Shown: one piece after another, positions 1 to 24,756 of the stretch
Layout of the letters: every line of letters begins with the position of its first letter
Position numbering within the stretch: position 1 is the first letter of the stretch
From: Dehalococcoidia bacterium
GTDB lineage: Bacteria > Chloroflexota > Dehalococcoidia > Lucifugimonadales > HRBIN23
DNA length: 64,000 nt
Assembly: GCA_025060295.1 (NCBI GenBank)
Contig: JANXCH010000001.1
Coordinates: 32,896 to 96,895 of the forward strand
Reading direction: 5' to 3'
Program-made: the position numbers and the translations under genes
The notes under the pieces: model-generated
The model's input: only the letters and a program-made list of their open reading frames with translations
Databases searched by the model: none
Told to the model about the DNA's origin: nothing

Positions 1-486
1 GCCCGCCAGGTGTTGGACGATACACGCCGGCGTGGGGTGGAGGTGAGTCTCCCTCAGGATGTGGTAGTGGCTCCCACCCTTGAGGCGGGTGCCCCCTATA
101 CCATTCTCCCTGTAACGGCCATTCCCGCCGACTGGCGGATTGTGGATGTGGGCCCCAGCACCGTGGCCCTTTTTGCCGTGCGCCTCGCACGCTGTAAGAC
201 CGTCGTCTGGAACGGCCCTGTGGGGGTGTTTGAGGTGCCCGCTTTTTCCCACGGCACCCGTGCCCTGGCCTATGCCCTGGCTGATCTGACCCAACGGCAA
301 GGCCTGGTGAGCATTGTGGGGGGCGGGTCTACCGCTGAAGCCGTTACCCAGGTGGGCCTTGTGGAGAAGATGTACCATGTCTCTACGGGCGGGGGGGCAT
401 CCTTGGAGTTCCTGGAGGGTAGGGAACTCCCCGGCGTGAGCGCCTTGTGGACAGTTGAGCAAGTGGCGAGGGGGCGGCGTGATTGA
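1..486 (+). CDS. pgk: phosphoglycerate kinase, C-terminal fragment (5' end outside window)
   Basis: The frame is open to the window edge. The translation carries C-terminal PGK hallmarks VVWNGPVGVFE, IVGGGSTAEAV and STGGGASLEFLEG. Confidence 0.9.
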   Translation, partial: ARQVLDDTRRRGVEVSLPQDVVVAPTLEAGAPYTILPVTAIPADWRIVDVGPSTVALFAVRLARCKTVVWNGPVGVFEVPAFSHGTRALAYALADLTQRQGLVSIVGGGSTAEAVTQVGLVEKMYHVSTGGGASLEFLEGRELPGVSALWTVEQVARGRRD

Positions 487-1684
487 TTTCCCCGGCCTGG
501 CAGACCTCCTCCTGGACTCGCCGAGCAAAATCTTGTTTCTGGTGGTGGACGGGTTGGGGGGGCTTCCCCATCCCGAGACGCGCCGTTCCGAACTGGAGAC
601 AGCCCACATTCCCCATTTGAACGCTTTGGCTAAGCAGAGCGCGTGCGGTCTGACGACTCCTGTCCTGCCCGGCATCACCCCGGGCAGTGGGCCGGGGCAT
701 TTAGCCTTGTTCGGCTATGACCCGCTGAAGTACACCATCGGGCGGGGGGTGTTGGAGGCATTGGGTATTGGCTTGGAGGTGCGCGCGGGTGATCTAGCGG
801 CGAGGGGCAACTTCTGCACGGTGAATGCCCAAGGCATCATCCTGGACCGACGGGCAGGGCGCATCTCTTCCGAGGAGAGCGCCCATTTGGTGCACCGTCT
901 GGCGGGCATCCGCCTCCCCGGGGTATACCTGGAGGTGCATCCCGTCAAGGAGCATCGCTTTGTGGTGCTCCTGCGGGGGGATGGCCTCTCCGAGGAGGTG
1001 TGCGATACAGACCCGGGACGCACCGGTGTTCCCCCTCGGGAGCCGACGGCCCTGTCCCCGCAAGGGGAGCGCACCGCCACCCTCGTGCGCACCTTCGTGC
1101 AGGAGGCGCGCCACCTTCTCCGCCACGAGCCAAAGGGGAATATGGTGCTCCTGCGGGGATGGTCGCGCCTGCCGGCTTTCCCCAACTTTGCCGAGACTTA
1201 TCGCCTGAGAGCGGCGGCGGTGGCAGCTTATCCGATGTATCGGGGTATTGCCCGGGTGTTGGGGATGCAGGTGCTCCCCACGGGAAACACCTTCGCCGAG
1301 GAGGTGGCCACTGTGCGGGAGCATTGGCACGCCTATGATTTCTTCTTCCTCCACTACAAGCCCGCCGATGCTGCGGGCGAGGATGGGGATTTTGCCAGTA
1401 AGGTGCGGGCATTAGAGGCTTTGGACGCCCATATCCCCGACCTTTTGGCGTTGCGTCCCGAGGTGTTGGTGGTGGCGGGCGACCACGCTACGCCGGCCCT
1501 GGTGGGAGGGCACTCGTGGCATCCCGTGCCCTTGCTCATTCACTCCCGCTACACAGTGGGCGAGGGAGTAGAAGGGTTCAATGAGAAGGCGTGTGCCCTG
1601 GGGTCTTTAGGGCGGTTGCCGGCCACAGCCGTTATGCTGCTCGTCTTGGCCCACGCCGGCCGCCTAGCCAAATACGGGGCGTAG
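479..1684 (+). CDS. apgM: cofactor-independent phosphoglycerate mutase, archaeal ApgM type
   Basis: LFLVVDGLGGLP, ETAHIPHLNALA, GITPGSGPGHLALFGYDP and AGDHATPA fit the ApgM/metalloenzyme family. GTG 479 follows GAGGGGG and overlaps the pgk stop by 8 nt; TTG 455 is the alternative start. Confidence 0.8.
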   Translation: MIDFPGLADLLLDSPSKILFLVVDGLGGLPHPETRRSELETAHIPHLNALAKQSACGLTTPVLPGITPGSGPGHLALFGYDPLKYTIGRGVLEALGIGLEVRAGDLAARGNFCTVNAQGIILDRRAGRISSEESAHLVHRLAGIRLPGVYLEVHPVKEHRFVVLLRGDGLSEEVCDTDPGRTGVPPREPTALSPQGERTATLVRTFVQEARHLLRHEPKGNMVLLRGWSRLPAFPNFAETYRLRAAAVAAYPMYRGIARVLGMQVLPTGNTFAEEVATVREHWHAYDFFFLHYKPADAAGEDGDFASKVRALEALDAHIPDLLALRPEVLVVAGDHATPALVGGHSWHPVPLLIHSRYTVGEGVEGFNEKACALGSLGRLPATAVMLLVLAHAGRLAKYGA

Positions 1685-7553: not shown

Positions 7554-8702
7554 ATGGGGGTGGGCATGTTCCAGTTCAAAGAAATCCGTCGTGCCTACGG
7601 GTTTGATGAGGTGGCCATCGTCCCCGGCCAGGTTACCATCAACCCCGACCAGACCAACATTGAGTTCCAGTTGGGCCCCCATCGCTTCGCCATTCCTTTC
7701 CTGGCATCCTCTATGGATGCCGTGGTCAGCCCCTCCTTTGCCATTGCTATGGGCAAGGCGGGGGGACTGGCCGTTTTGAACCTCGAGGGGGTGTGGACCC
7801 GCTACGAGGATGCCGATGCGGTGCTCCAACAGATTGCCGAGGCTCCCCCGGGGGAGGTAACAACCCTCCTCCAGAAGATTTACAGCGCTCCCCTGAAAGA
7901 GCACCTAGTCGGCCAGCGCATCCGAGAGATCAAAGCGGGGGGTGTGGTGTGCGCAGTGGCGGTAACACCCCAAAACACCAAGCGCCTTGCCCCCCTGGCC
8001 GTTGAGGCGGGGGCGGACATCTTGGTGGTGCAGGCCACTGTTACCACGGCCCGCCACATCTCCAAAAGTTATCGGGGGCTTATCTTTTCCGAACTGGTGC
8101 AGCAGGTGAACATCCCTGTCCTGGTGGGCAACTGCGTTACCTACAGTGCTGCCCTGGAACTGATGGAGACGGGGATTCACGGCATCTTGGTGGGGGTGGG
8201 ACCGGGGGCAGCCTGCACCACACGGGAGGTGGTGGGTGTGGGAGTCCCCCAGGTAACGGCCACGATGGATTGCGCTGCTGCCCGGGAGGAATACTATCGC
8301 CAAACGGGGCGGTATGTGGTGGTCATCACCGACGGGGGCATGCGCACGGGTGGGGAGGTGTGTAAGGCCTTTGCGTCGGGGGCCGATGCGGTGATGCTGG
8401 GCACCCCCTTCGCCCAGGCCAAGGAGGCCCCAGGCAGGGGCTATAACTGGGGGATGGCGACTTCTCACCCCGCCCTCCCGCGGGGCACGCGGGTGAAGGT
8501 GGGGACGAAGGGCACCTTGCAGGAGATCCTGTTCGGCCCCTCGCGGGTAACCGACGGCACCATGAACCTGGTGGGGGCGTTGCGGGTGGGCATGGGGATG
8601 GTGGGGGCTTTCACTATTCGCGACTTCCAGAGGGCGGAGCTGGTCTACGCCCCCGACATCAAGACCGAGGGGAAGGCCTACCAGTTGGCCCAGCGTGCCT
8701 AA
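7554..8702 (+). CDS. IMP dehydrogenase-family protein, GuaB3-like (no CBS insert)
   Basis: [14 protein letters not shown], a TIM-barrel IMPDH core ([26 protein letters not shown]), and no CBS pair. The start is ATG 7554 or 7566, chosen downstream of the predicted promoter. Confidence 0.8.
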
Positions 8703-11610: not shown

Positions 11611-12051
11611 CTAGCCCTCTAGGGTGGCAATGACCTCGGCCACACTGGGGTGCAGACGATAGCCTGGCCCTTCGGGGAGGGACACCTTTTCCACTGGGCG
11701 CGGGAGGCCCGGGAAGCCCCGCATGCGGTGGCCCACAGACGAGAGGGTGCCTCCGATCTCCCGTGCCCGCATGTTCAAAGCCTGTTGGAGGGCTGTCCAC
11801 CCCACACCCTCGGGATGCTTAGCTACCTCCTTGAGGATGCGACGGGCATCGGGGGAGAGGCGCCCCCAGAACCGACGCACTTGCTGTGGAGTCCACCTCT
11901 GCTCGCCCGCAGGCTTGACAGGCGGAGGTGGCGAGACTTCTTTCACCGTGACCGCTGCTGGCGTTTCTTTTGCAGCGCCTTCGGCAAGACGAGCAAGAAT
12001 TGCCTGCACCTCATCCCACTCCCCTTCTAGGGTTACTGTTATACGGGCCAT
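11611..12051 (-). CDS. hypothetical protein (146 aa) with Pro-rich linker
   Basis: ATG 12051 lies 4 nt after GGAGG. The protein has an N-terminal about 30-aa segment (MARITVTLEGEWDEVQAILARL), a PPPPVKP linker, and a C-terminal about 90-aa region that looks helix-rich. I recognise no family. Confidence 0.5.
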   Translation of the reverse strand: MARITVTLEGEWDEVQAILARLAEGAAKETPAAVTVKEVSPPPPVKPAGEQRWTPQQVRRFWGRLSPDARRILKEVAKHPEGVGWTALQQALNMRAREIGGTLSSVGHRMRGFPGLPRPVEKVSLPEGPGYRLHPSVAEVIATLEG

Positions 12052-12489
12052 GTTCCCTCCTTCCCAATTGACACTGACCATAATAAGTGTAACAGTTCGA
12101 ATCCAATGTGTAAAGGGTATAGGAGCAAAAAAGCGGTGTTTTAGGGTTTGCTCTCACACACTCAAAACAGATGGCCGAGGACATGCAGGGTGGCACATGC
12201 CAGCTTTGTCAGGCAGACGGGATGCACCGATGTGGTCAAGATGGGGCACGCAATACAAGGAGGCGAAAATGTGGGGGAGACGCAGGAGGTGTGCGAGTAA
12301 CCACTCCCAGGAGTTTGGCCTGCGAAGCGGGAGCGTTGGCTGCGGATGTGTCCTAGCGGGCAACGGCGCCTGCCCGATCCCTGCATACTGTGTGGCGGCG
12401 CATAACGAGGGTATGGCAACTATGATTACGGTGCTCCCGATGAGCCTCCTTTCCAGTGTAGATGCCGATGCCGAGAGAGGTCTTCCGCT

Positions 12490-14285: not shown

Positions 14286-16607
14286 CTAGGGCAGGAGCAA
14301 GCCCACGCTCCGGAAGGCCCCGACACCCTCCCTTTGAATGGGCAAGCCGAGTACTAATCGACCTTGCATTAGTCCTTCTACCGTCGGATACAGGGCGTCC
14401 CAGCGGGCCAAGTAGCGGCGGGTGTAGGCGTCGGCGTGTTCGGGGGTCAGTGTAACTAGGTACAGAAAGGCACCGCGGAGGTCAGCCACCCCCAACCTCC
14501 CCTCCACGAGCAAACTGGTGCGGGCCTTTCTCAGGTTGTCGTCCGTCAGCAGGGCGCTCCACAGAAGGGCTATGCCACGGGCGTATTCATCGTTTTCCCG
14601 CTGGAGGTGGATGCCGGACAAGGTGTCTTGCAGCCATTGGGCATAAAGGGGCGTGCGGGGGTAAAGGGTAAGGTCTAGGCCCGTGCGCTCCTCCAACAGG
14701 CGCACAAAAAGGGCTTCGTGGAGGAAGCCCTGGGCCTCCCGCACAGCGCGCAGGTTGAGGGTATCAGGGGCCTCGCCCAGGCGGGGGTTCACCACCATCT
14801 GACGGAAGTGGCCCAGTTCATGCCCCAGGTCGCGCACCACCTCGGCGGGAGGGCGTTGCGCCATCACCCCTATCCGCAGACGGCCTCTCCACGAAGTGGT
14901 GAGGGCATGGGCAGACTGCAAGCGCAGGCACGCCGCCACATAGGCTTCTCGCTGAACAGGGGGGAGGAATGCCGCCTGGTCCGCGCAGACCATCCCCACC
15001 CAGCGCACGAACTCTCGGCGGGGAAGGAGGAGAACATCCACCGCCTCGGCCTCCAAAGGTTTCCCATATAGGAGCATGTAAAGGGCTGACGCCAAAGCAA
15101 GGATGTCCCTGCCCATGGCCACGCCGTCTTGACCGTGAGAGCCGTCGGCCTGAAGGAGGGTGGTGATCAAAGCGAGGCGGCGGCGCACCTCCTCGGAGGT
15201 CAAAACGGAGGGGGGCTCCGGCGGGTGTGCGAGCCACTCCACCTGGCGTTCCACCCGGAGCAGCACTTGCCCCATCTCTCCCGAAGTGTCGGCAGCCAGC
15301 CCCACCAGGAGAACCACCTGGTGCACACCCAAAGGTAACAGGGCGAGGGAGGACGGCAGAACCTGATCTAGGAGCACATCCACCTCCCCCGCCCCCAGGG
15401 GCGGGCGTGTCCATCGGGCCACCGGGGAACCGTCTATCAAAAGCACTGCGTGCAGACGCCCTGGGAGGGGAGCATCCCCCTGGTTGGCCACCCCCCAGTG
15501 GGCCCATACCCCTTGTCCCCGCACCACTGCGCTATGGCCGAAATGGCCCTCCTGGGACGAGAGAACCAAAGCGTCTGCCATACCCGGGAAGGCGTAGGGC
15601 ACCAGGCGGGGACCCTCACCAGGAGGGCTCTGGGCAGGGGGCCATGCAAAGGTCAAAAAGTATGCGTTGTTGTCCTCTTCTGCCTCATCTAGCCGATTCG
15701 TGGCGTCGGCTCTCGCCACAACGCGGTGCACACCTGGGCGAAGGGGGAGAACCTCCAATAGGCCATCCCATTCCAAACGCGTCTCCTGCCCCGGGAGGAG
15801 GGGAGGGATGGCCCAGCGGGTTGCGACAACGCCATTCACCTCCAGGTCGGTAACAGTGCGGACAGTAGAGGCCGAACGCCCGCGGTTGCGCAAGGCCACT
15901 TGCACTTTCACACGCCCGTCCATTGTGGGCGACACCGTTACCGGGGCAGACCAGTCGGGCGGTGTGAAAAAGACGAGGTCCGGTAAGTAGGGGTGCTCTT
16001 CCGTGCTTGGACGGGCAGGCGCAGGCCCTGTCCACAGGAAGGAGAGGGAGACGGCGTTGTTAGTTTGACTTGCCTCCTGCAAGAGACCTGTGGGGTCGAT
16101 GCGGAGGGTGAGGGTATGAGGTCCTGGGGTGAGCCTGACGCGCTCCAGCAGTTCCCCCCAGTCGAGGACGCTGAAGCGTTCCCCCGCTCCTAAAGGGGGG
16201 ATACGCCAGCGCTCCACAAGAATGCCGTCCAGGTAAAGGTCTACCAAAGCGGGCGTTGGCAGGGGAGCCGGCCCCAGGTTAAGCACCCACCAACTGATGA
16301 AGGGGGCTTCCGGCCCCAGGAAAGGGGTGTTGGAGCGTGCGTTGCGGAAGGGGCTGGCGATGAGCGCGCTTTCCCAGCCCGGGGGTGCCTGGATGGCCAG
16401 GTCGTAGACTAGGGGCGGTGGAGGCGCCATCGGGGGGTTTGGTGTGGGGCGTGGGACAGGTGTGGGGGTTGGGGTGGGAAGTGGTGTAGGAGTGGGCGGA
16501 CCGGGGGTCAAGGGGGGCGATGGGAGGGGAGGGCGCGGACTGCGGAGCCACTCACACCCCGCGAGCATTATGAGCATGACCAGCACCGCGAGGAGGGAGA
16601 TGCGCAT
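14286..16607 (-). CDS. secreted lipoprotein with three CARDB-like repeats and a C-terminal HExxH domain
   Basis: Signal peptide with lipobox MRISLLAVLVMLIMLAGC, then a Pro/Thr linker. Three about 100-aa repeats follow (..L.LDG..V.RW.IPPL.AG......W......L.PG.H.L......), and a C-terminal about 330 aa carries HELGH (nt 14808..14822). Confidence 0.75.
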   Translation of the reverse strand: MRISLLAVLVMLIMLAGCEWLRSPRPPLPSPPLTPGPPTPTPLPTPTPTPVPRPTPNPPMAPPPPLVYDLAIQAPPGWESALIASPFRNARSNTPFLGPEAPFISWWVLNLGPAPLPTPALVDLYLDGILVERWRIPPLGAGERFSVLDWGELLERVRLTPGPHTLTLRIDPTGLLQEASQTNNAVSLSFLWTGPAPARPSTEEHPYLPDLVFFTPPDWSAPVTVSPTMDGRVKVQVALRNRGRSASTVRTVTDLEVNGVVATRWAIPPLLPGQETRLEWDGLLEVLPLRPGVHRVVARADATNRLDEAEEDNNAYFLTFAWPPAQSPPGEGPRLVPYAFPGMADALVLSSQEGHFGHSAVVRGQGVWAHWGVANQGDAPLPGRLHAVLLIDGSPVARWTRPPLGAGEVDVLLDQVLPSSLALLPLGVHQVVLLVGLAADTSGEMGQVLLRVERQVEWLAHPPEPPSVLTSEEVRRRLALITTLLQADGSHGQDGVAMGRDILALASALYMLLYGKPLEAEAVDVLLLPRREFVRWVGMVCADQAAFLPPVQREAYVAACLRLQSAHALTTSWRGRLRIGVMAQRPPAEVVRDLGHELGHFRQMVVNPRLGEAPDTLNLRAVREAQGFLHEALFVRLLEERTGLDLTLYPRTPLYAQWLQDTLSGIHLQRENDEYARGIALLWSALLTDDNLRKARTSLLVEGRLGVADLRGAFLYLVTLTPEHADAYTRRYLARWDALYPTVEGLMQGRLVLGLPIQREGVGAFRSVGLLLP

Positions 16608-16616
16608 GCCCCACGG

Positions 16617-17057
16617 CTACCCCAAACGCTTCTGCAAACAGGCGAAGAAGGTGTCCAACAGTAGACGAGCGACGCCTCCCGCCACGCGCTGGCCCAGACC
16701 CGCGAGCAACCCCCCCAGGGTTACCCGCCCCTCCACTTCCACCCAGGTGCTCTCCCCCCGCTCGTGGAGGGTGAGAACGCCCTCCCCCCGCACGAACCCC
16801 CCCGCTCCTTTCCCCTCCACCTGCAGGCGATAGCGCTGCAGGGGTTCCACAACAGTCAGCACCACCTTGCCCGTATAGGTGCCCTTAATGGCCGACACCC
16901 CAACCCGCATCACCACATCATACTGATCGGGCACCGCTGAAGGAGTGAGGCGCTCACACCCGGGGATGCACGCCTGCAGGGTGCCTGTGTCCAGCAGGTG
17001 CTCCCACACCCGCTGGCGCGGAGCCTTGAGTTCATACTGTGCCTTTACCTGGAGCAA
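16617..17057 (-). CDS. coxG: CoxG / SRPBCC-family carbon monoxide dehydrogenase subunit G-like protein
   Basis: The profile MLQVKAQYELKAPRQRVWEHLLD...L..CIPGCE.L........Y......VG...IKG.Y.G.V is typical of CoxG. Its stop lies 10 nt upstream of the lipoprotein start. Confidence 0.8.
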   Translation of the reverse strand: MLQVKAQYELKAPRQRVWEHLLDTGTLQACIPGCERLTPSAVPDQYDVVMRVGVSAIKGTYTGKVVLTVVEPLQRYRLQVEGKGAGGFVRGEGVLTLHERGESTWVEVEGRVTLGGLLAGLGQRVAGGVARLLLDTFFACLQKRLG

Positions 17058-17277: not shown

Positions 17278-17307
17278 TTGACAAAGCTCTCTTTGCTATT
17301 CTAGCAT
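17278..17307 (+). promoter_or_regulatory. putative promoter (TTGACA-18-TAGCAT) for coxSLM
   Basis: TTGACA at 17278..17283 and TAGCAT at 17302..17307, about 108 nt upstream of the coxS GTG, in the 358-nt divergent intergenic region. Confidence 0.4.
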
Positions 17308-17415: not shown

Positions 17416-17931
17416 GTGCTCTACAATATCCAGGTTACTGTCAACGGCAAGAGTTATGCCCACACTGTCGAGCCGCGTCTGCTGTTGGTGCACTACCTCC
17501 GGGATGTGCTGGGCCTCACCGGCACGCACATCGGCTGCGATACCAGCCAATGCGGGGCGTGCACCGTGGTCCTCAACGGCAAGGCCGTCAAGTCCTGCAC
17601 CGTGTTCGCCGTCCAGGCCGACGGAGGCACCGTCCTCACGGTGGAGGGTTTGGCCAAGGACGGGAAACTGCACCCTGTGCAACAGGGCTTCTGGGAGGAA
17701 CATGGGTTGCAGTGCGGCTTCTGCACCCCAGGGATGATTATGGCGTCCTACGCCCTTCTGGAGCGCAACCCCAACCCGACCGAGGCGGAGATCCGCCACG
17801 CTCTGGAGGGTAACTTGTGCCGATGCACAGGATACCAGAACATCGTGCGGGCGGTGCAGTGGGCCGCCCGGCAGATGGCTGAATCCGCTTCCGCCGCCCC
17901 TGTGCGAGGACCGAGGCGGCGGGCCCGCTAA
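17416..17931 (+). CDS. coxS: [2Fe-2S]-binding small subunit of a molybdenum hydroxylase (CoxS-like)
   Basis: Plant-type cluster [12 protein letters not shown] and second cluster CGFCTPGM...CRCTGY. GTG 17416 follows GGGGAGG. Confidence 0.9.
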
Positions 17932-17967
17932 AAGCCACTTGTTACCCAGCCTGGAAAGGGGGAGCAC

Positions 17968-20301
17968 ATGGTCATCTCCAAAATGGTCGGGGCACGCATA
18001 AAGCGTAAGGAGGACCCGCGCCTGATTACCGGCAAAGGCACCTACACCGACGATGTGCGCCTCCCGGGCACCCTCTATATGGCCGTCCTGCGCAGCCCCC
18101 ATGCCCACGCCCGCATCCGCAAGCTGGATGTGAGCAAGGCTTTGGGGCATCCGGGGGTTGTCGCGGTCCTCACAGGTGCCGAGGTGAAGCAGATGTGCGG
18201 CCCCCTCCCAGCCCAGGGGCCGCTGGAGGGGATGAAACTAGCCCTCCGCTACCCTCTGGCCGTGAACAAGGTTACGCATGTGGGGGAGGGGGTAGCCGCG
18301 GTGGTAGCGGAGAGCCGTTACTTGGCCCGGGATGCCCTGGACCTCATTGAGGTGGACTACGAGCCGCTCCCCGCCGTTGTGGACCCCGAGCAGGGCATGA
18401 AGCGCACCGCCCCTGTGATCCACGAACATTTGAAGACCAACTTGGCTTATTCCATTAAACAGTCGGTGGGGGATGTGGAGGGGGCCTTCCGGCAGGCGGC
18501 AGGGACGGTGAAGGCTCGCTGGGTGGAGCAACGCCTTATCCCCCTGGCGATGGAGTGTCGGGCTGTGGTGGCCCACTACGAGCCAGGCCCTGGTACCTTG
18601 ACCATCTGGAACACCACCCAGAACCCCCACATTCTGCGGGGGGTGCTGGCGGGGATGTTGCGTCTGGCGGAGAACCGCATCCGTGTCATCGCCCCCGATG
18701 TAGGCGGGGGGTTTGGGAGCAAGATAGACGTCTACCCCGAAGAGGCCTTAGCTGCCCTGTTCTCTCTGCGCTTGGGGCGTCCCGTCCAATGGGCTGAGGA
18801 GCGCACGGAGAACTTTGTGGCCACTATCCACGGGCGGGGGCAACTCCAAGAGGTGGAGGCGGCCTACGACGCCGAAGGCCACATCCTCGCCCTGCGGGTG
18901 CGTATCTGGGCCGACCTGGGAGCCTATTGCCAACTGTTCACCCACGCTATACCCACCCTGACCCTCACCATGCTCAACGGCACCTACCGCTTCGCCAACG
19001 CCGCATGGGAGCTCTACGGCGTGTACACCAACAAGACCCCCACCGATGCCTACCGAGGGGCAGGGCGCCCCGAGGCCACCTATCTCTTGGAGCGCACGAT
19101 GGACTTGGTGGCCCACCGTTTGGGATTGGACCCCGCCGAGGTACGCCGCCGGAACTTTATCCCTAAAGAGGTTTTTCCCTATCAGACGGCGGTGGGGACA
19201 GTGTATGACAGCGGGGATTACGAAGGGGCGCTGGATAAGGTTCTTGCCCTGGCCAACTACAAACACCTGCGTCAGGAACAGCAGGAGCGCCTCAAGCGGG
19301 GTGACCGTCAACTCCTGGGTATTGGCTTCTCCACCTTTGTAGAAATTTGTGGGTTCGCCCCCAATATGCCCGAAAACGCCACCGTGCGGGTGGAACCTAG
19401 TGGAGCCGTTACCGTGTTCACCGGCACCTCTCCCCACGGGCAAGGGGAGGAGACCACCTTCGCCCAAATCGTGGCGGAGGAGTTGGGCGTCCCCATAGAT
19501 GATATTACGGTGGTGCACGGGGATACCCTGGCCATCCCCCACGGCAACGGGACGCTGGGGAGCCGCACCCTGGCCCTGGGGGGGACAGCTGTGCTCCAGG
19601 CGGCGCGCCAGGTCAAGGAGAAGGCCCGCACCCTCGCTGCCCACCTGCTCAAAATGCCCCCCGACAAGGTCAGCGTGGCGGGGGGACACTTCTTCGTGGA
19701 GGACATCCCAGATAAGAAGATCTCCTGGAAGGAGGTAGCCGAAAAGGCCTACACCCCTCCGCCCGACCTCCCCGCCGAGTGGGAGCCGGGCTTGGTGGCC
19801 ACCTCCTACTTCAAGCCCCCCAACTTTACCTTCCCCTTCGGTGCCCATATCGCTGTCGTAGAGGTGGATCGGGAGACAGGGGATGTGCGCCTGCGGGACT
19901 ACTTCGCCGTGGACGATTGTGGGCACCGCATCAACCCGCTCCTAGTGGAGGGCCAACTGCACGGGGGTCTTGCCCAGGGCATCGCCCAAGCCCTCTATGA
20001 GGAGGTGATCTACGACGAGAACGGGCAACTGCTCACCAACAACCTCATGAACTACGCTGCCCCCAACGCGGCCATGCTTCCCTCGTTCACTCTGGAGGCT
20101 ATGGTGACCCCCACACCCACCAACCCCTTGGGAGCTAAGGGGGTAGGGGAACTGGGCACTATCGGGGCCACCCCGGCCGTAGTCAACGCCGTAGCCGATG
20201 CCCTGCGCCATATCGGGGTTGACCCGGCCCAGGTGCAAATGCCCACCACCCCCGAGCGGGTGTGGCGTCTCATCCGGCAGGCCGAGCGCCGAAGGAGGTA
20301 G
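17968..20301 (+). CDS. coxL: molybdopterin-binding large subunit, form II CoxL-like (AYRGAGR active-site loop)
   Basis: 777 aa of the xanthine dehydrogenase/aldehyde oxidase family. The active-site loop reads TPTDAYRGAGRPEA rather than the AYxCSFR of bona fide form I CO dehydrogenases. Confidence 0.9.
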   Translation: MVISKMVGARIKRKEDPRLITGKGTYTDDVRLPGTLYMAVLRSPHAHARIRKLDVSKALGHPGVVAVLTGAEVKQMCGPLPAQGPLEGMKLALRYPLAVNKVTHVGEGVAAVVAESRYLARDALDLIEVDYEPLPAVVDPEQGMKRTAPVIHEHLKTNLAYSIKQSVGDVEGAFRQAAGTVKARWVEQRLIPLAMECRAVVAHYEPGPGTLTIWNTTQNPHILRGVLAGMLRLAENRIRVIAPDVGGGFGSKIDVYPEEALAALFSLRLGRPVQWAEERTENFVATIHGRGQLQEVEAAYDAEGHILALRVRIWADLGAYCQLFTHAIPTLTLTMLNGTYRFANAAWELYGVYTNKTPTDAYRGAGRPEATYLLERTMDLVAHRLGLDPAEVRRRNFIPKEVFPYQTAVGTVYDSGDYEGALDKVLALANYKHLRQEQQERLKRGDRQLLGIGFSTFVEICGFAPNMPENATVRVEPSGAVTVFTGTSPHGQGEETTFAQIVAEELGVPIDDITVVHGDTLAIPHGNGTLGSRTLALGGTAVLQAARQVKEKARTLAAHLLKMPPDKVSVAGGHFFVEDIPDKKISWKEVAEKAYTPPPDLPAEWEPGLVATSYFKPPNFTFPFGAHIAVVEVDRETGDVRLRDYFAVDDCGHRINPLLVEGQLHGGLAQGIAQALYEEVIYDENGQLLTNNLMNYAAPNAAMLPSFTLEAMVTPTPTNPLGAKGVGELGTIGATPAVVNAVADALRHIGVDPAQVQMPTTPERVWRLIRQAERRRR

Positions 20302-20304
20302 GGT

Positions 20305-21174
20305 ATGGTGTGTGCCCCCTTCACCTATCACCGACCCGCTTCTGTGCGCCAGGCGGTCGCCTTACTGCAACGCCTGGGCGACGATGCCAAAGTGTTGGCG
20401 GGCGGACAAAGCCTCATCCCTACGATGAAACTGCGCCTGGCCCAGCCCCAGCACCTCATTGACCTGGCGGGTATCCCCAGCCTGTCCTATGTGAAGGAGG
20501 GCAGAGGGATTATCCGCATCGGGGCCCTTACCACTCACGCCGAGGTGGAGTCCTCGGAGGTGCTCAAGAGGCGCCTGCCCGTGCTCGCGGAGACGGCCAG
20601 CCTCATCGGCGATATGCAGGTGCGCAATCGGGGCACCATCGGCGGAAGCGTTGCCCACGCCGACCCCGCTGCCGATTACCCCGCGACCCTGCTGGCCTTG
20701 GATGCCCGTTTTAGGGTGGTGGGGCCGCAGGGCACCCGGTTCATCCCCGCTAGCGCTTTCTTCAAGGCACCCTTCACCACCGCCCTGGAGGCGGGGGAAA
20801 TCCTCACGGAGGTGCAGGTGCCCGTGCCTGCTCCTCGCACTGGGGCATCCTATCAGAAGTTCGCCAACAAGGCCTCGCGTTTTGCGGTGGTGGGCGTCTG
20901 CGCTTTCCTGGCTCTGACGGCGCGGGGCACCATTCGCCAGGTGCGCATCGGTGTAACGGGTGCCGCCGACCACGCTTTCCGTGCTACCGCCGCCGAGGGG
21001 TCTTTGGTGGGCCAGCGCCCTACGGGGCGCGCCTTTCAGCAGGCCGCCCGCGTGGCAACCGAAGGCGTGGAGTGTATCAGTGACGTGCACGGCTCAGCGG
21101 AGTACCGGGCGTGGTTGTGCCAAGTATTGACCCGCCGAGCCCTGGAGACTGCCCTTGCACGGGCCAGCGCCTAA
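20305..21174 (+). CDS. coxM: FAD-binding medium subunit (CoxM-like)
   Basis: FAD-binding PCMH-type domain (AGGQSLIPTMKLR, RNRGTIGGSVAHADP) and a C-terminal CO-dehydrogenase flavoprotein domain ending GSAEYR. Confidence 0.9.
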   Translation: MVCAPFTYHRPASVRQAVALLQRLGDDAKVLAGGQSLIPTMKLRLAQPQHLIDLAGIPSLSYVKEGRGIIRIGALTTHAEVESSEVLKRRLPVLAETASLIGDMQVRNRGTIGGSVAHADPAADYPATLLALDARFRVVGPQGTRFIPASAFFKAPFTTALEAGEILTEVQVPVPAPRTGASYQKFANKASRFAVVGVCAFLALTARGTIRQVRIGVTGAADHAFRATAAEGSLVGQRPTGRAFQQAARVATEGVECISDVHGSAEYRAWLCQVLTRRALETALARASA

Positions 21175-21518: not shown

Positions 21519-22340
21519 ATGGTAGGGACCCTTCCCACACGCAGTCATCCCATTTATGCCGAGCGCGACCCGCGACGGGTGCGGGCCTACATTCGGCGTA
21601 AGGAATGGCGGTGGGGCACATCGGGGTTAGTGCCGGGATATACCCAGGCCAACCTGGTGCTCATCCCGAAGGCAGATGCCTTTGACTTCCTCCTGTTCTG
21701 CCTGCGCAACCCCAAGCCGTGCCCGCTTCTGGAAGTAACGGAGCCCGGCAACCCCGAGCCGGTCCTGATGGCCCCGGGGGCTGACCTGCGCACCGATGTG
21801 CCTCGCTATCGGGTCTTCCGCAACGGGAAGGTGGTGGATGAGCCCTACGACATCCGCTCCTGGTGGCGGGACGACTTGGTGGGGTTTCTGCTGGGGTGCA
21901 GTTTTACCTTTGAGCACGCTCTCCAGCAGGCGGGCGTGCCCGTGCGAGGAATAGAGGGCGACTGCCCCACCTTCACCGCTTATATCACGGGCGTCCCTTG
22001 CACCCCCGCAGGCAAGTTTCACGGGCGGATGGTGGTAACCATGCGCCCCATGACACCCGCCCACGCCATTCAAGCAGTGCAGGTAACGAGCCGTTTCCCC
22101 AAAGCCCACGGCGCCCCCGTCCACATTGGCGACCCCTCCGTTATCGGCATTCCCGACTTAGGTCGGCCCGACTTCGGCTCCCCTGTGGAGGTGCGGGCGG
22201 GGGAGGTGCCCGTGTTCTGGGCGTGTGGTATCACCCCCCAGGTGGTGGCCCTGGAGTCTGGTGTGGAGTTCATGATCACCCACTATCCCGGCCATATGTT
22301 CATTACCGACAAACGGGACGAGGAGATTGCCCTATCCTAG
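21519..22340 (+). CDS. UPF0317/DUF1445 putative hydro-lyase (D-glutamate cyclase-like)
   Basis: GYTQANLVLIPKADAFDFLLFCLRNPKPCPLLEV and the later HGAPVHIGDP and WACGITPQ match the DUF1445 family. Confidence 0.8.
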   Translation: MVGTLPTRSHPIYAERDPRRVRAYIRRKEWRWGTSGLVPGYTQANLVLIPKADAFDFLLFCLRNPKPCPLLEVTEPGNPEPVLMAPGADLRTDVPRYRVFRNGKVVDEPYDIRSWWRDDLVGFLLGCSFTFEHALQQAGVPVRGIEGDCPTFTAYITGVPCTPAGKFHGRMVVTMRPMTPAHAIQAVQVTSRFPKAHGAPVHIGDPSVIGIPDLGRPDFGSPVEVRAGEVPVFWACGITPQVVALESGVEFMITHYPGHMFITDKRDEEIALS

Positions 22341-22418: not shown

Positions 22419-24620
22419 CTAGATGAAGATGGGAGCCATGACCAGGGTGATGGTGCTGAGCAGTTTGACCAGCACATGGAGGGACGGGCCCGCTGTGTCC
22501 TTGAAGGGGTCGCCCACTGTGTCGCCCACTACGGCGGCAGCGTGTACCGGGGTGCCCTTGCCCATTTTCTCGCCCGTGGGGTTGGTCAGGGCACCCGACT
22601 CGATCAGTTTTTTGGCGTTGTCCCAGGCGCCGCCGGCATTGTTCATATAGGTGGCCAGCAGGATGCCCCCGATGGTTCCGATCATCAGGAGGGCGGCCAC
22701 CGCCTCAGCCCGCAGGATGACCCCCACAATAATGGGCACGCCTACCGCCAACAAACCCGGAGCCACCATGCCCCGCTGGCCGGCACGGGTGGTGATGTCC
22801 ACAGCACGGGCGTAGTCGGGGCGGGCCTGACCGGTCATAATTCCCGGGTTGGTGCGGAACTGGCGACGCACCTCCTCAATCACACTGCTAGCGGCCGTCT
22901 GAACAGCGCGGATGGCCCAGGCGCTGAACAGGAACACTAGCATCGCCCCGATCAGCCCTCCCACGAACACCTCGGGCTTCGCCAGGTTAACGGCCTCCAG
23001 GGGAGCGCCCCGCACCTTGGCCACTTCATCCAGGTAGGCGCTGAACAACAGGAAGGCTGCCAGCCCCGCCGAACCCATGGCGTAGCCCTTGGTCAAGGCC
23101 TTCGTCGTGTTGCCCACGGCGTCCAGACGGTCGGTAACACTGCGCACCTTATCCCCGGCCCCTGCCATCTCCACGATGCCGTTGGCGTTATCGGTGATGG
23201 GGCCAAAGGTATCCATCGCCAGCACATAGGCGGCGGTCATGAGCATCCCCATAGTGGCCACGGCAGTGCCGAACAGTCCCCCGTGGGGAATTTCCGAGCC
23301 GTCGGGCAGGCGCAGTTGGTCGCCCATCCAATAGGCCAGTAGGATGGCGACGCCGATAGCCACGGCGGTGGAGAAGGTGGTCTCGAAGCCCACCGAGGTG
23401 CCCGCCACGATGTTGGTGGCCGGCCCTGTGCGGGACGCCTCGGCGATGGACTTGACAGGGCGGTAATAGACCTCGGTGTAGTACTGGGTGATGAACACGA
23501 AGGCCACGCTGGTGGCGATGCCCACCAGCCCCGCCAGGAACAGCCAGATGGGGTTAGCCACCGCATCGCCCATCATGCCCCAGGTGGCAATGGCCAGGAA
23601 CACCACCGACAAACCAATGGAAAGGAAGTAGCCCCGGTTCAGGGCGCGCATGGGGTTCTCGTCCTCCCTGCCCCGCACCGCCAGCACGCCGAGGGCGGTG
23701 GCGATGAGACCGAAGGCGCGAATCACCAGCGGAAATAGCACCCACACCTCGGGGCGGGGCAGGTTGGCACGGGCGGCGGCGGCATAGGCCGCAACGCCGA
23801 GGATCATCGCCCCGATGTTCTCGGCGGCGGTGGACTCAAAGAGGTCGGCACCGCGCCCGGCGCAGTCCCCCACATTGTCTCCCACCAAGTCGGCGATGAC
23901 GGCGGGGTTACGGGGGTCGTCCTCGGGAATCCCCGCCTCTACTTTCCCTACCAGGTCGGCCCCCATATCCGCCGCTTTGGTGTAGATGCCCCCGCCCAAC
24001 TGGGCGAACAGGGCCACGAAACTAGCCCCAAACCCGAAGCCCACGATGAGGAAGGGGGCAATGGGCACCTCGGCGCGATAGACGGGGTCAAAGACCAAGC
24101 GGGAGGAGCCCCCATAGGCATAAAAGATGGCCAGGATACCCAACAGGCTCAGGGCGACGATGAGGAATCCCGACACTGCTCCACCCCGCAGCGCCACGGT
24201 AACAGCCTCCCTCAGTCCGCCACGGGCGGCAGCTGCGGCGGCGCGCACATTGCTCTTCACAGAGATGTACATACCGATGAAGCCCGCCAGGCCCGAGCAG
24301 AAGGCCCCTAACAGGAACGCCACGGCGGTGCGCCAACCCAATCCCAAGGTGTCGGCCAGGTCCACACGGCGGTCGCCGGTGATGTCGGTGCGCCCCAGGA
24401 AGGCCAGGAGCAGACCCATCAGCAAAGCCACCGCCACTGATAAATAGGCGATGGTGCCATATTGACGGCGCAAAAAGGCCATAGCCCCTTCTAAGATGCG
24501 GTTGGCGATGTCCTGCATCTCGGGGGGGCCGGGGTCACGACGCAAGACATCCCGGGCGAGCCAGAAAGCGAAGAGGACGGCTGCTACGCCCGCAATGGGG
24601 ACCAGCCAGAATAAAGCCAT
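22419..24620 (-). CDS. hppA: membrane-bound proton/sodium-translocating pyrophosphatase
   Basis: Multi-TM protein with [45 protein letters not shown] and [20 protein letters not shown] 24620 lies 5 nt after AGGAGG. Confidence 0.93.
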
Positions 24621-24756
24621 GCACGCCTCCTGAGCAGTTGTGGCTGGGCGCTTGTGGCCCGCATCACTAGCAAGATATGATAGCACACCCGCTACGGCCC
24701 CCTCCCGTGCGTGCCCGCGCCCTCCCTATTCCAATCGATGCCCCCAACCTGGCAGA

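Follow-up and report, generated by a model that had tools for sequence, protein, structure and literature searches.

A candidate family of exported gluzincin-like lipoproteins in Chloroflexota and its gene neighborhood

Results

An unnamed C-terminal domain with an invariant zincin signature

A gene on the reverse strand of a 64,000-nucleotide (nt) stretch of Dehalococcoidia DNA (contig JANXCH010000001.1; this whole stretch is referred to as the window) encodes a 773-aa predicted lipoprotein (14286..16607, stop codon included, from the list of open reading frames (ORFs) and their translations) that is likely to be a zinc metallopeptidase of a new, unnamed gluzincin family, lipid-anchored and exposed at the cell surface. 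This assignment draws on the anatomy of the protein, the family-wide invariance of its putative catalytic residues and the topology of its predicted fold. The protein is identical to MCS7206371.1 and MDW8119083.1 from two public assemblies, where it bears the label 'hypothetical protein [Dehalococcoidia bacterium]'. A sequence-only reading of the window, made without database searches, had taken it for a lipoprotein that resembles a protease, belongs to no named family and has a meaningful link to the adjacent cox locus; the first part of this view stands and the second does not.

The C-terminal alpha/beta domain (aa 468-773, about 306 aa; 14289..15206, reverse strand), which we treat as the putative gluzincin domain of the unnamed family, carries the sequence HELGH at aa 596-600 (14808..14822, reverse strand). 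H596 and H600 are predicted zinc ligands, and E597 is the predicted general base. All three residues are invariant (112/112 homologs) in an alignment of 112-116 domain sequences that are otherwise 25-45% identical and from which all residue counts given here are taken. The family motif reads HExGHxxQ, with G599 present in 111 of 112 sequences and Q603 in 105 of 113. Because an HExxH arises by chance in 1.7% of shuffles of the window protein, the motif alone is weak evidence, and its significance comes from its invariance. The sequence-only reading had located HELGH at exactly these nucleotides, and had pointed to Glu residues 12 and 25 positions downstream as compatible with the third ligand of a gluzincin. 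The former, E612, does lie at 12 but is rejected as a zinc ligand, since the position is variable (Glu in only 23/114). The latter is E624 (14736..14738, reverse strand), which lies at 24 residues rather than 25 from the second His, is invariant (115/115) and is the predicted third zinc ligand. The spacing of 24 is shared by the window protein and most members, and is the modal value for the family. E624 sits in the family motif E-A-x-A, where A625 is found in 107/115 and position 627 is Ala in 112/115 and Gly in the window protein; this context resembles the EAIGD of angiotensin-converting enzyme (ACE) and the NEAISD of thermolysin. HELGH falls within a predicted helix (587-606), and E624 within the helix that directly follows it (617-642). 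A conserved HExxH, followed within approximately 18-60 residues by an invariant Glu on the next predicted helix, is the sequence pattern of gluzincins, and it is the pattern observed here.

Conservation extends well beyond the presumed zinc site. Position 675 (14583..14585, reverse strand), a candidate for transition-state stabilization, is His in 113/116 sequences within the motif E-H-x-x-G, and is Tyr in the window protein, in its ortholog at locus L007 and in family member P0106. Further downstream, W683 is invariant (114/114), and G678 and R750 are nearly so (109/115 and 100/102, respectively). The very last residue of the protein, P773 (14289..14291, reverse strand), ends a tail motif of the form R-x-x-[GA]-L-L-x-P-COOH, with Pro in all 81 of the 81 complete C-termini. 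The tail at P773 is modeled with a predicted local distance difference test score (pLDDT) of about 98. Strict conservation of a terminal residue suggests a structural or autoregulatory role for the free carboxylate or for the proline itself. We could find no counterpart to the combined signature, HExGHxxQ ... EAxA ... EHxxG ... W ... R ... LLxP-COOH.

These residues bear on a quite different view, in which the protein has no catalytic function and acts as an adhesin or binding protein, with a pseudo-peptidase or purely structural helical C-terminal domain and CARDB repeats that serve in adhesion. Arrays of CARDB or immunoglobulin (Ig)-like domains are typical of adhesins, and fold matches to RbmA, integrins and alpha-2-macroglobulin fit such a role, as do the Tyr that replaces the family His675 in the window protein and the lack of a significant match to characterized peptidases. 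However, the H, E, H and E of the predicted site are absolutely conserved in more than 110 sequences despite the divergence noted above, which is the hallmark of a metal or catalytic site that has been maintained, and the C-terminal domain is kept when the N-terminal modules are swapped. Tyr, moreover, is a common transition-state stabilizer in zincins. We therefore regard a purely adhesive protein as improbable.

Distribution and domain partners of the family

An exhaustive phmmer (HMMER) search with the C-terminal domain against 1.84 billion cluster representatives returned 106 representatives at E<=1e-3, of which 25 reached E<=1e-30; these amount to about 106 clusters at 50% identity. In almost all of the matches, the domain occupies the extreme C-terminus, and among full-length members it is C-terminal without exception. 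All members with a source name come from metagenome-assembled genomes (MAGs) of Chloroflexota or Dehalococcoidia, such that the family is confined to Chloroflexota as far as its members are named. Existing labels for named members are 'hypothetical', 'CARDB domain-containing' or 'PKD repeat protein'. Less sensitive routes to the family yielded little. A word-indexed search with the domain gave no homolog among its best 8000 candidates, the profile version gave one fragment, and a scan of the contig collection with the single protein found only an unrelated CARDB match in an Anaerolineae MAG (L002). A search for paralogs within the window found none.

Distant members pair the domain with other partners. 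In some, beta-propellers similar to pyrroloquinoline quinone (PQQ) or BamB propellers replace the CARDB repeats ahead of the domain; in others, PKD and Big_1 domains or an N-terminal zinc ribbon are found alongside CARDB repeats. Fusion to such varied extracytoplasmic modules implies that the C-terminal domain behaves as an autonomous module of exported proteins.

For aa 468-773 of the window protein, no Pfam or NCBIfam match reaches threshold. Sequence and profile searches of the PDB with the domain gave chance-level matches only (E>0.1), among them 4-oxalocrotonate tautomerase and, at the HExxH motif, a snake-venom metalloproteinase. The earlier statement that the domain belongs to no named peptidase family is thus borne out, and our literature searches retrieved no description of the family. 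Kinship to a Peptidase_MA_2 protein encoded nearby was considered and rejected, as evidenced by an hhalign probability of 0.3% and an alignment restricted to an 11-residue stretch around HExxH.

Predicted fold and likeness to known peptidases

The AlphaFold2 model of the domain, built with a 36-sequence alignment, has a pLDDT of 94.5 and a predicted template modeling score (pTM) of 0.92; for the full-length protein, the values are 91.3 and 0.86. In the domain model, strands 523-528, 568-573 and 576-582 are followed by the HExxH helix (587-606), the E624 helix (617-642) and a helical bundle. As modeled, this is the element order of the zincin/gluzincin arrangement.

The features shared with established gluzincins (MEROPS clan MA, subclan MA(E), including thermolysin M4, ACE M2, M3 and M32) are the HExxH helix with a Glu helix after it, a His-to-Glu spacing of 24 that falls within the range of M2, M3 and M32, and a predicted beta-sheet ahead of the active-site helix with a helical C-terminal subdomain behind it. 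Membership in any of these families is another matter. Matches to M3 and M32 occur in just one or two of 36 members at sub-threshold E-values of 0.02-0.1, and the new family has invariant or near-invariant positions of its own at Q603, H675, W683, R750 and the terminal Pro. Pfam models for M48, M3 and M32 are among the further sub-threshold matches at the HExxH region of members. Short local similarity at the strand and the HExxH helix is also seen to DUF6782, a putative metallopeptidase family (23/36 members), and to Peptidase_M78 (ImmA/IrrE; 19/36 members). Nevertheless, these matches cover only some 60-80 of the approximately 306 residues, do not exceed about 18 bits in any of the ten members scanned one by one (the cut-offs are 27 and 22 bits, respectively) and are missing from the window protein itself. 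The NCBIfam model NF038145, which describes the Hvo_1808 family of haloarchaeal predicted lipoproteins, gives weak matches over the HExxH region in 12/36 members, but at 13-24.5 bits in members examined individually, compared to a cut-off of 200, and again with no match in the window protein. HVO_1808 is Sec-exported, lipobox-bearing (LAGC) and cell-associated, with an uncharacterized function (PMC2945643), although its lipidation has been doubted (PMC13631571).

At the level of fold, the five best Foldseek matches of the domain model in the PDB are all chains of human MATCAP, with E-values of 0.013-0.06 and probabilities of up to 0.89; clostridial collagenase T appears lower in the same list. 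A search of viral folds (BFVD) gave nothing significant. The best match, 7z5g (MATCAP/TMCP, KIAA0895L; E 0.013, probability 0.89), belongs to the gluzincin clan of metallopeptidases, where it too was unannotated until recently (PMC10499314). MATCAP is a gluzincin carboxypeptidase, and the MATCAP/TMCP motif is HExxxH (PMC10499314). The extended motif is absent from the family described here, which is strictly HExxH, so assignment to MATCAP/DUF1704-type carboxypeptidases is rejected, and the match reflects shared clan-level architecture rather than family membership. The matches to MATCAP, moreover, have template modeling (TM) scores of 0.27-0.29 and approximately 15% identity, with no similarity found at the level of sequence, and MATCAP is a eukaryotic cytosolic enzyme, in contrast to the bacterial, predicted exported lipoprotein of the window.

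Several of these results weigh against the assignment as a gluzincin peptidase. Foldseek finds nothing in the PDB at E<=1e-3; the best fold match has a TM-score of only 0.28, and its motif is HExxxH instead of HExxH. For none of the named families tested (M78, M48, M3, M32, DUF6782, Peptidase_MA_2 and Hvo_1808_fam) does a match reach the curated threshold. The window protein and its L007 ortholog have Tyr in place of the near-invariant His675, a change that may modify or reduce activity. Zincin folds, finally, are also found in hydrolases that are not peptidases.

Anatomy of the exported protein

The N-terminus (aa 1-18, MRISLLAVLVMLIMLAGC; 16554..16607, reverse strand) reads as a signal peptide with a lipobox. 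It has Arg2, a hydrophobic core with a mean Kyte-Doolittle value of 2.84 and the lipobox L-A-G-C, in which Cys18 is the predicted lipidated residue. A lipobox was taken as the [LVI][ASTVI][GAS]C that ends an N-terminal signal peptide, as judged from reading the sequence, and the LAGC at Cys18 has this form. Among family representatives, at least 24 begin with a hydrophobic stretch that leads into [GAS]C, and lipobox or signal-anchor N-termini are found in many members.

A Pro/Thr-rich tether follows (aa 19-63; 16419..16553, reverse strand), predicted to be disordered from its composition and pLDDT: residues 19-66 include 24 Pro and 7 Thr among 48 positions (50% Pro, 15% Thr), and AlphaFold pLDDT is below 50 at residues 1-8 and 14-48. 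The 773-aa ORF, the lipobox and the tether are all as the sequence-only reading had described them, the evidence being the ORF translation, composition and N-terminal sequence.

Between tether and C-terminal domain lie three repeats, each predicted by AlphaFold to be a beta-sandwich. Repeat 1 (CARDB-like, from repeat comparison and AlphaFold) spans aa 64-203 (15999..16418), repeat 2 (CARDB) spans aa 205-332 (15612..15995) with its best Pfam CARDB stretch at aa 230-316, and repeat 3 (CARDB-like) spans aa 333-467 (15207..15611), all on the reverse strand. Identity to repeat 1 is 36% for repeat 2 and 34% for repeat 3. Pfam CARDB (PF07705) scores 62.9 bits (E 3.6e-17), well above its gathering cut-off of 22.7. 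Three CARDB-like repeats had been proposed previously, and both Pfam and fold prediction agree; their length is about 130 aa, not the 100 aa then estimated, and the trailing NN motif said to mark them is present in repeats 1 and 2 but not in repeat 3. Against the PDB, the full-length model matches only generic Ig-like arrays (alpha-2-macroglobulin, factor XIII, C5a peptidase and RbmA). The layout, with three tandem CARDB/Ig-like beta-sandwiches N-terminal to a putative catalytic domain in an exported protein, is that of other CARDB-domain surface proteins and peptidases. CARDB, however, is a generic accessory module and does not define a catalytic family.

Proposed mode of action

A mechanism may be sketched from these features. 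The Sec signal peptide would be cleaved at the lipobox and Cys18 lipidated, anchoring the protein to the outside of the cytoplasmic membrane; Chloroflexota, Dehalococcoidia included, are generally regarded as monoderm. The disordered Pro/Thr stalk of approximately 45 residues and the three CARDB Ig-like modules would hold the catalytic domain off the membrane, and the modules may also bind substrate. H596 and H600 of the HExxH helix, together with E624 of the next helix, would bind Zn2+, with E597 as the general base that activates a water molecule. The beta-strand at aa 576-582, just ahead of the active-site helix, would line the substrate cleft. Residue 675 (Tyr here, His in 97% of family members) may stabilize the transition state, by analogy with thermolysin-like and other zincins, in which a His or Tyr has this role. 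Extracellular or envelope peptides and proteins would be the likely substrates.

The coxG linkage is lineage-specific

The gene directly upstream, on the same strand, is coxG (16617..17057, reverse strand; Pfam SRPBCC family, PF06240, 7.5e-22). A 9-nt spacer separates its stop codon from the ATG of the lipoprotein gene, such that the ATG begins at the 10th nt after the stop, and no terminator-like site is predicted between the two. The junction, TAGCCGTnGGGCATG, is conserved at L007, where the ortholog is 62% identical. Divergent from these genes are coxS, coxL and coxM (17416..21174, forward strand). The 10-nt distance from the coxG stop and the divergent coxSLM are as described in the sequence-only reading, and its suggestion of co-transcription with coxG is plausible for this genome in light of the spacer, the lack of a predicted terminator and the kept junction. 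Sequence considerations thus make a shared transcript with coxG probable in this genome.

It does not follow that the protein serves the molybdenum hydroxylase. That the lipoprotein is tied to the coxSLM/coxG locus, whether by partnering CoxG at the surface or because the enzyme requires it, would fit the 9-nt spacer, the missing terminator-like site and the junction retained at L007. But coxG and coxSLM flank the lipoprotein gene only in the window (locus L001 is identical) and at L007, and are absent from the 14 other lineages of our context sample (16 lineages, made up of metagenome loci L003-L012 from a search with an 8-sequence alignment and of contig look-ups L013-L023). This restriction makes the linkage lineage-specific. 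Lack of conservation had been set beforehand as the finding that would count against a molybdenum-hydroxylase connection, and on this ground the connection is largely refuted. In addition, the intermediate arrangements of L013 and L021, described below, show that the cox block entered an older neighborhood, and a Cox enzyme in the cytoplasm or at the inner membrane face is hard to reconcile with an exported partner. CoxL itself (17968..20301, forward strand) reads AYRGAGR at aa 361-367. This marks it as form II, or xanthine-dehydrogenase-like, and not as a bona fide CO dehydrogenase, for which the motif is AYXCSFR; NCBI names it a xanthine dehydrogenase family protein. The 'cox' locus is then a molybdenum hydroxylase other than a true CO dehydrogenase, which again does not favor a tie. 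Altogether, a functional bond between the lipoprotein and this locus appears very improbable.

Within the intergenic region between coxG and coxS, a promoter-like element (TTGACA, 18 nt, TAGCAT) lies at 17278..17307 on the forward strand, and is presumably the coxSLM promoter. It sits inside an extended block, GGGTTGACAAA...TGCTATTCTAGCATTA, that is also conserved at L007 (about 8000-8060). A similar block, TGTCAATCTGC, is conserved upstream of hppA. Elsewhere in the window, a 156-aa ORF at 11611..12081 (reverse strand), which is situated between the genes for an Ldh_2-family dehydrogenase and a thiamine pyrophosphate (TPP) enzyme, is conserved in L001; it has no significant Pfam match (DUF6416, E 0.095).

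A recurrent neighbor, hppA

Beyond the cox genes, on the strand of the lipoprotein gene, lies hppA (22419..24620, reverse strand), which encodes a K+-independent (GNTTKA-type) membrane H+-pyrophosphatase. Translation probably begins at the ATG at 24620 (MALFWLV...), not at the GTG at 24686 (reverse strand) of the mechanical ORF call, because conservation in the alignment with L007 begins at a GGAGG-type ribosome-binding site and that ATG. A GTG start placed too early would explain why the longer HppA translation is missing from the protein collection.

An hppA gene is found upstream of the lipoprotein gene, on the same strand, in 11 of the 16 lineages: directly in seven and with genes between in four. 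The seven direct pairs (L004, L005/L008, L006/L010, L012, L016, L020 and L022) have gaps of 38-410 nt, and their lipoproteins are at most 67% identical pairwise (L020 and L022 are outside that comparison). In L013 (P0002) and L021 (P0012), a gene for D-glutamate cyclase (PF07286) on the reverse strand separates hppA from the lipoprotein gene, and no cox genes are present. In the window and at L007, coxG is directly upstream, followed by coxSLM, D-glutamate cyclase and then hppA. The remaining five lineages (L014, L017, L018, L019 and L023), one of which holds the beta-propeller-fused member, have no hppA nearby; their upstream genes include lepA and an MFS (major facilitator superfamily) transporter gene. 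Pyrophosphatases of either type, K+-dependent (GNTTAA) or K+-independent (GNTTKA), take part in the pairing, although the two types are only approximately 43% identical to each other, and the genes outside the pair vary between lineages. At L007, a second family member (1..624, forward strand; C-terminal part, with the canonical His675) is encoded directly upstream of hppA, and the Tyr675 copy lies downstream of coxG; the window lacks a paralog at the corresponding position.

Four lineages have D-glutamate cyclase between hppA and the lipoprotein gene, in every case divergent from the latter (window, 21519..22340, forward strand; L013, 5573..6424; L021, 3887..4726; L007, 3394..4269; the last three on the reverse strand). 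The copies of L013 and L007, the two compared, are 74-84% identical to that of the window, even where the lipoprotein is only about 37% identical. The simplest history that these gene orders suggest is an ancestral hppA-lipoprotein pair, between which first D-glutamate cyclase and then the divergent coxSLM/coxG block came to lie. The placement of cox genes beside the lipoprotein gene would be a recent and purely local consequence of these insertions.

Another idea is that the domain, as a hydrolase with a zincin fold, acts on a non-protein or otherwise unusual amide, such as envelope glycopeptides, surface-layer (S-layer) linkages or peptides containing D-amino acids; the last of these is of note given the recurrent cyclase. 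In L013 and L021 the cyclase gene is the immediate, divergent upstream neighbor, and in the window and at L007 it belongs to the same block; the fold diverges from all solved peptidases, as the TM-score above attests; and Q603, W683, R750 and the terminal P773 are extra invariant residues. On the other hand, D-glutamate cyclase is absent from the seven lineages in which hppA is directly adjacent, and nothing specific favors a substrate other than a peptide. There is accordingly little chance that such a substrate is the true one, and a peptidase remains our preferred assignment.

The recurrence of hppA raises the question of whether the lipoprotein is a functional partner of HppA, the two forming a conserved envelope module in which the cox genes are passengers. 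This would be compatible with its identity as a gluzincin. The direct, same-strand pairing in seven diverged lineages speaks for it, as does the persistence of hppA upstream when only D-glutamate cyclase lies between (L013 and L021) or when the cyclase and cox genes both do (window and L007), and the pair is kept across both HppA types while the outer flanks differ. Yet five lineages lack a nearby hppA, three to six inserted genes in some lineages argue against obligatory co-transcription, and we know of no mechanism that would join a cytoplasm-facing pyrophosphatase to an external peptidase. Shared extended synteny may also explain part of the pairing. The order RecJ-MFS-hppA-lipoprotein recurs in L016 and L022, and a reverse-strand gene for OAD_beta (the beta subunit of Na+-translocating oxaloacetate decarboxylase) lies downstream of the lipoprotein gene in L004, L005, L008, L021 and L022. 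This extended synteny implies that part of the hppA signal may be gene order inherited within one class. On the evidence of gene order, then, the association with hppA is real but may partly reflect inherited synteny, and partnership with HppA we consider unlikely. In the five OAD_beta loci, all marine, two ion pumps flank the lipoprotein gene.

A fuller version of the same idea joins the new Chloroflexota gluzincin family and the H+-pyrophosphatase into one functional module, and has the carboxylate of the C-terminal Pro act at the active site in a specific way, structurally or in autoregulation. We judge this quite unlikely. Were it true, monoderm Dehalococcoidia would couple an external peptidase to an ion pump or to the energetics of the envelope.

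Conclusions

The window protein probably works like a gluzincin, judging from its sequence features, and its family would then be a new one of a known kind of enzyme. Uncharacterized HExxH families are common, and this one challenges no established concept. A guilt-by-association link to coxG and a molybdenum-hydroxylase locus is removed, and the conserved hppA neighbor stands as an unexplained association. What is gained is the definition of a compact family of exported proteins that annotation pipelines now label 'hypothetical' or 'CARDB domain-containing'. Its catalytic signature and high-confidence predicted fold, without a close solved relative, make it a candidate for a new family in MEROPS, and one that can be tested. 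Dehalococcoidia, marine lineages included, are abundant and poorly cultured, and their surface proteome is mostly unannotated; for these bacteria, the family offers a candidate extracellular peptide-processing activity.

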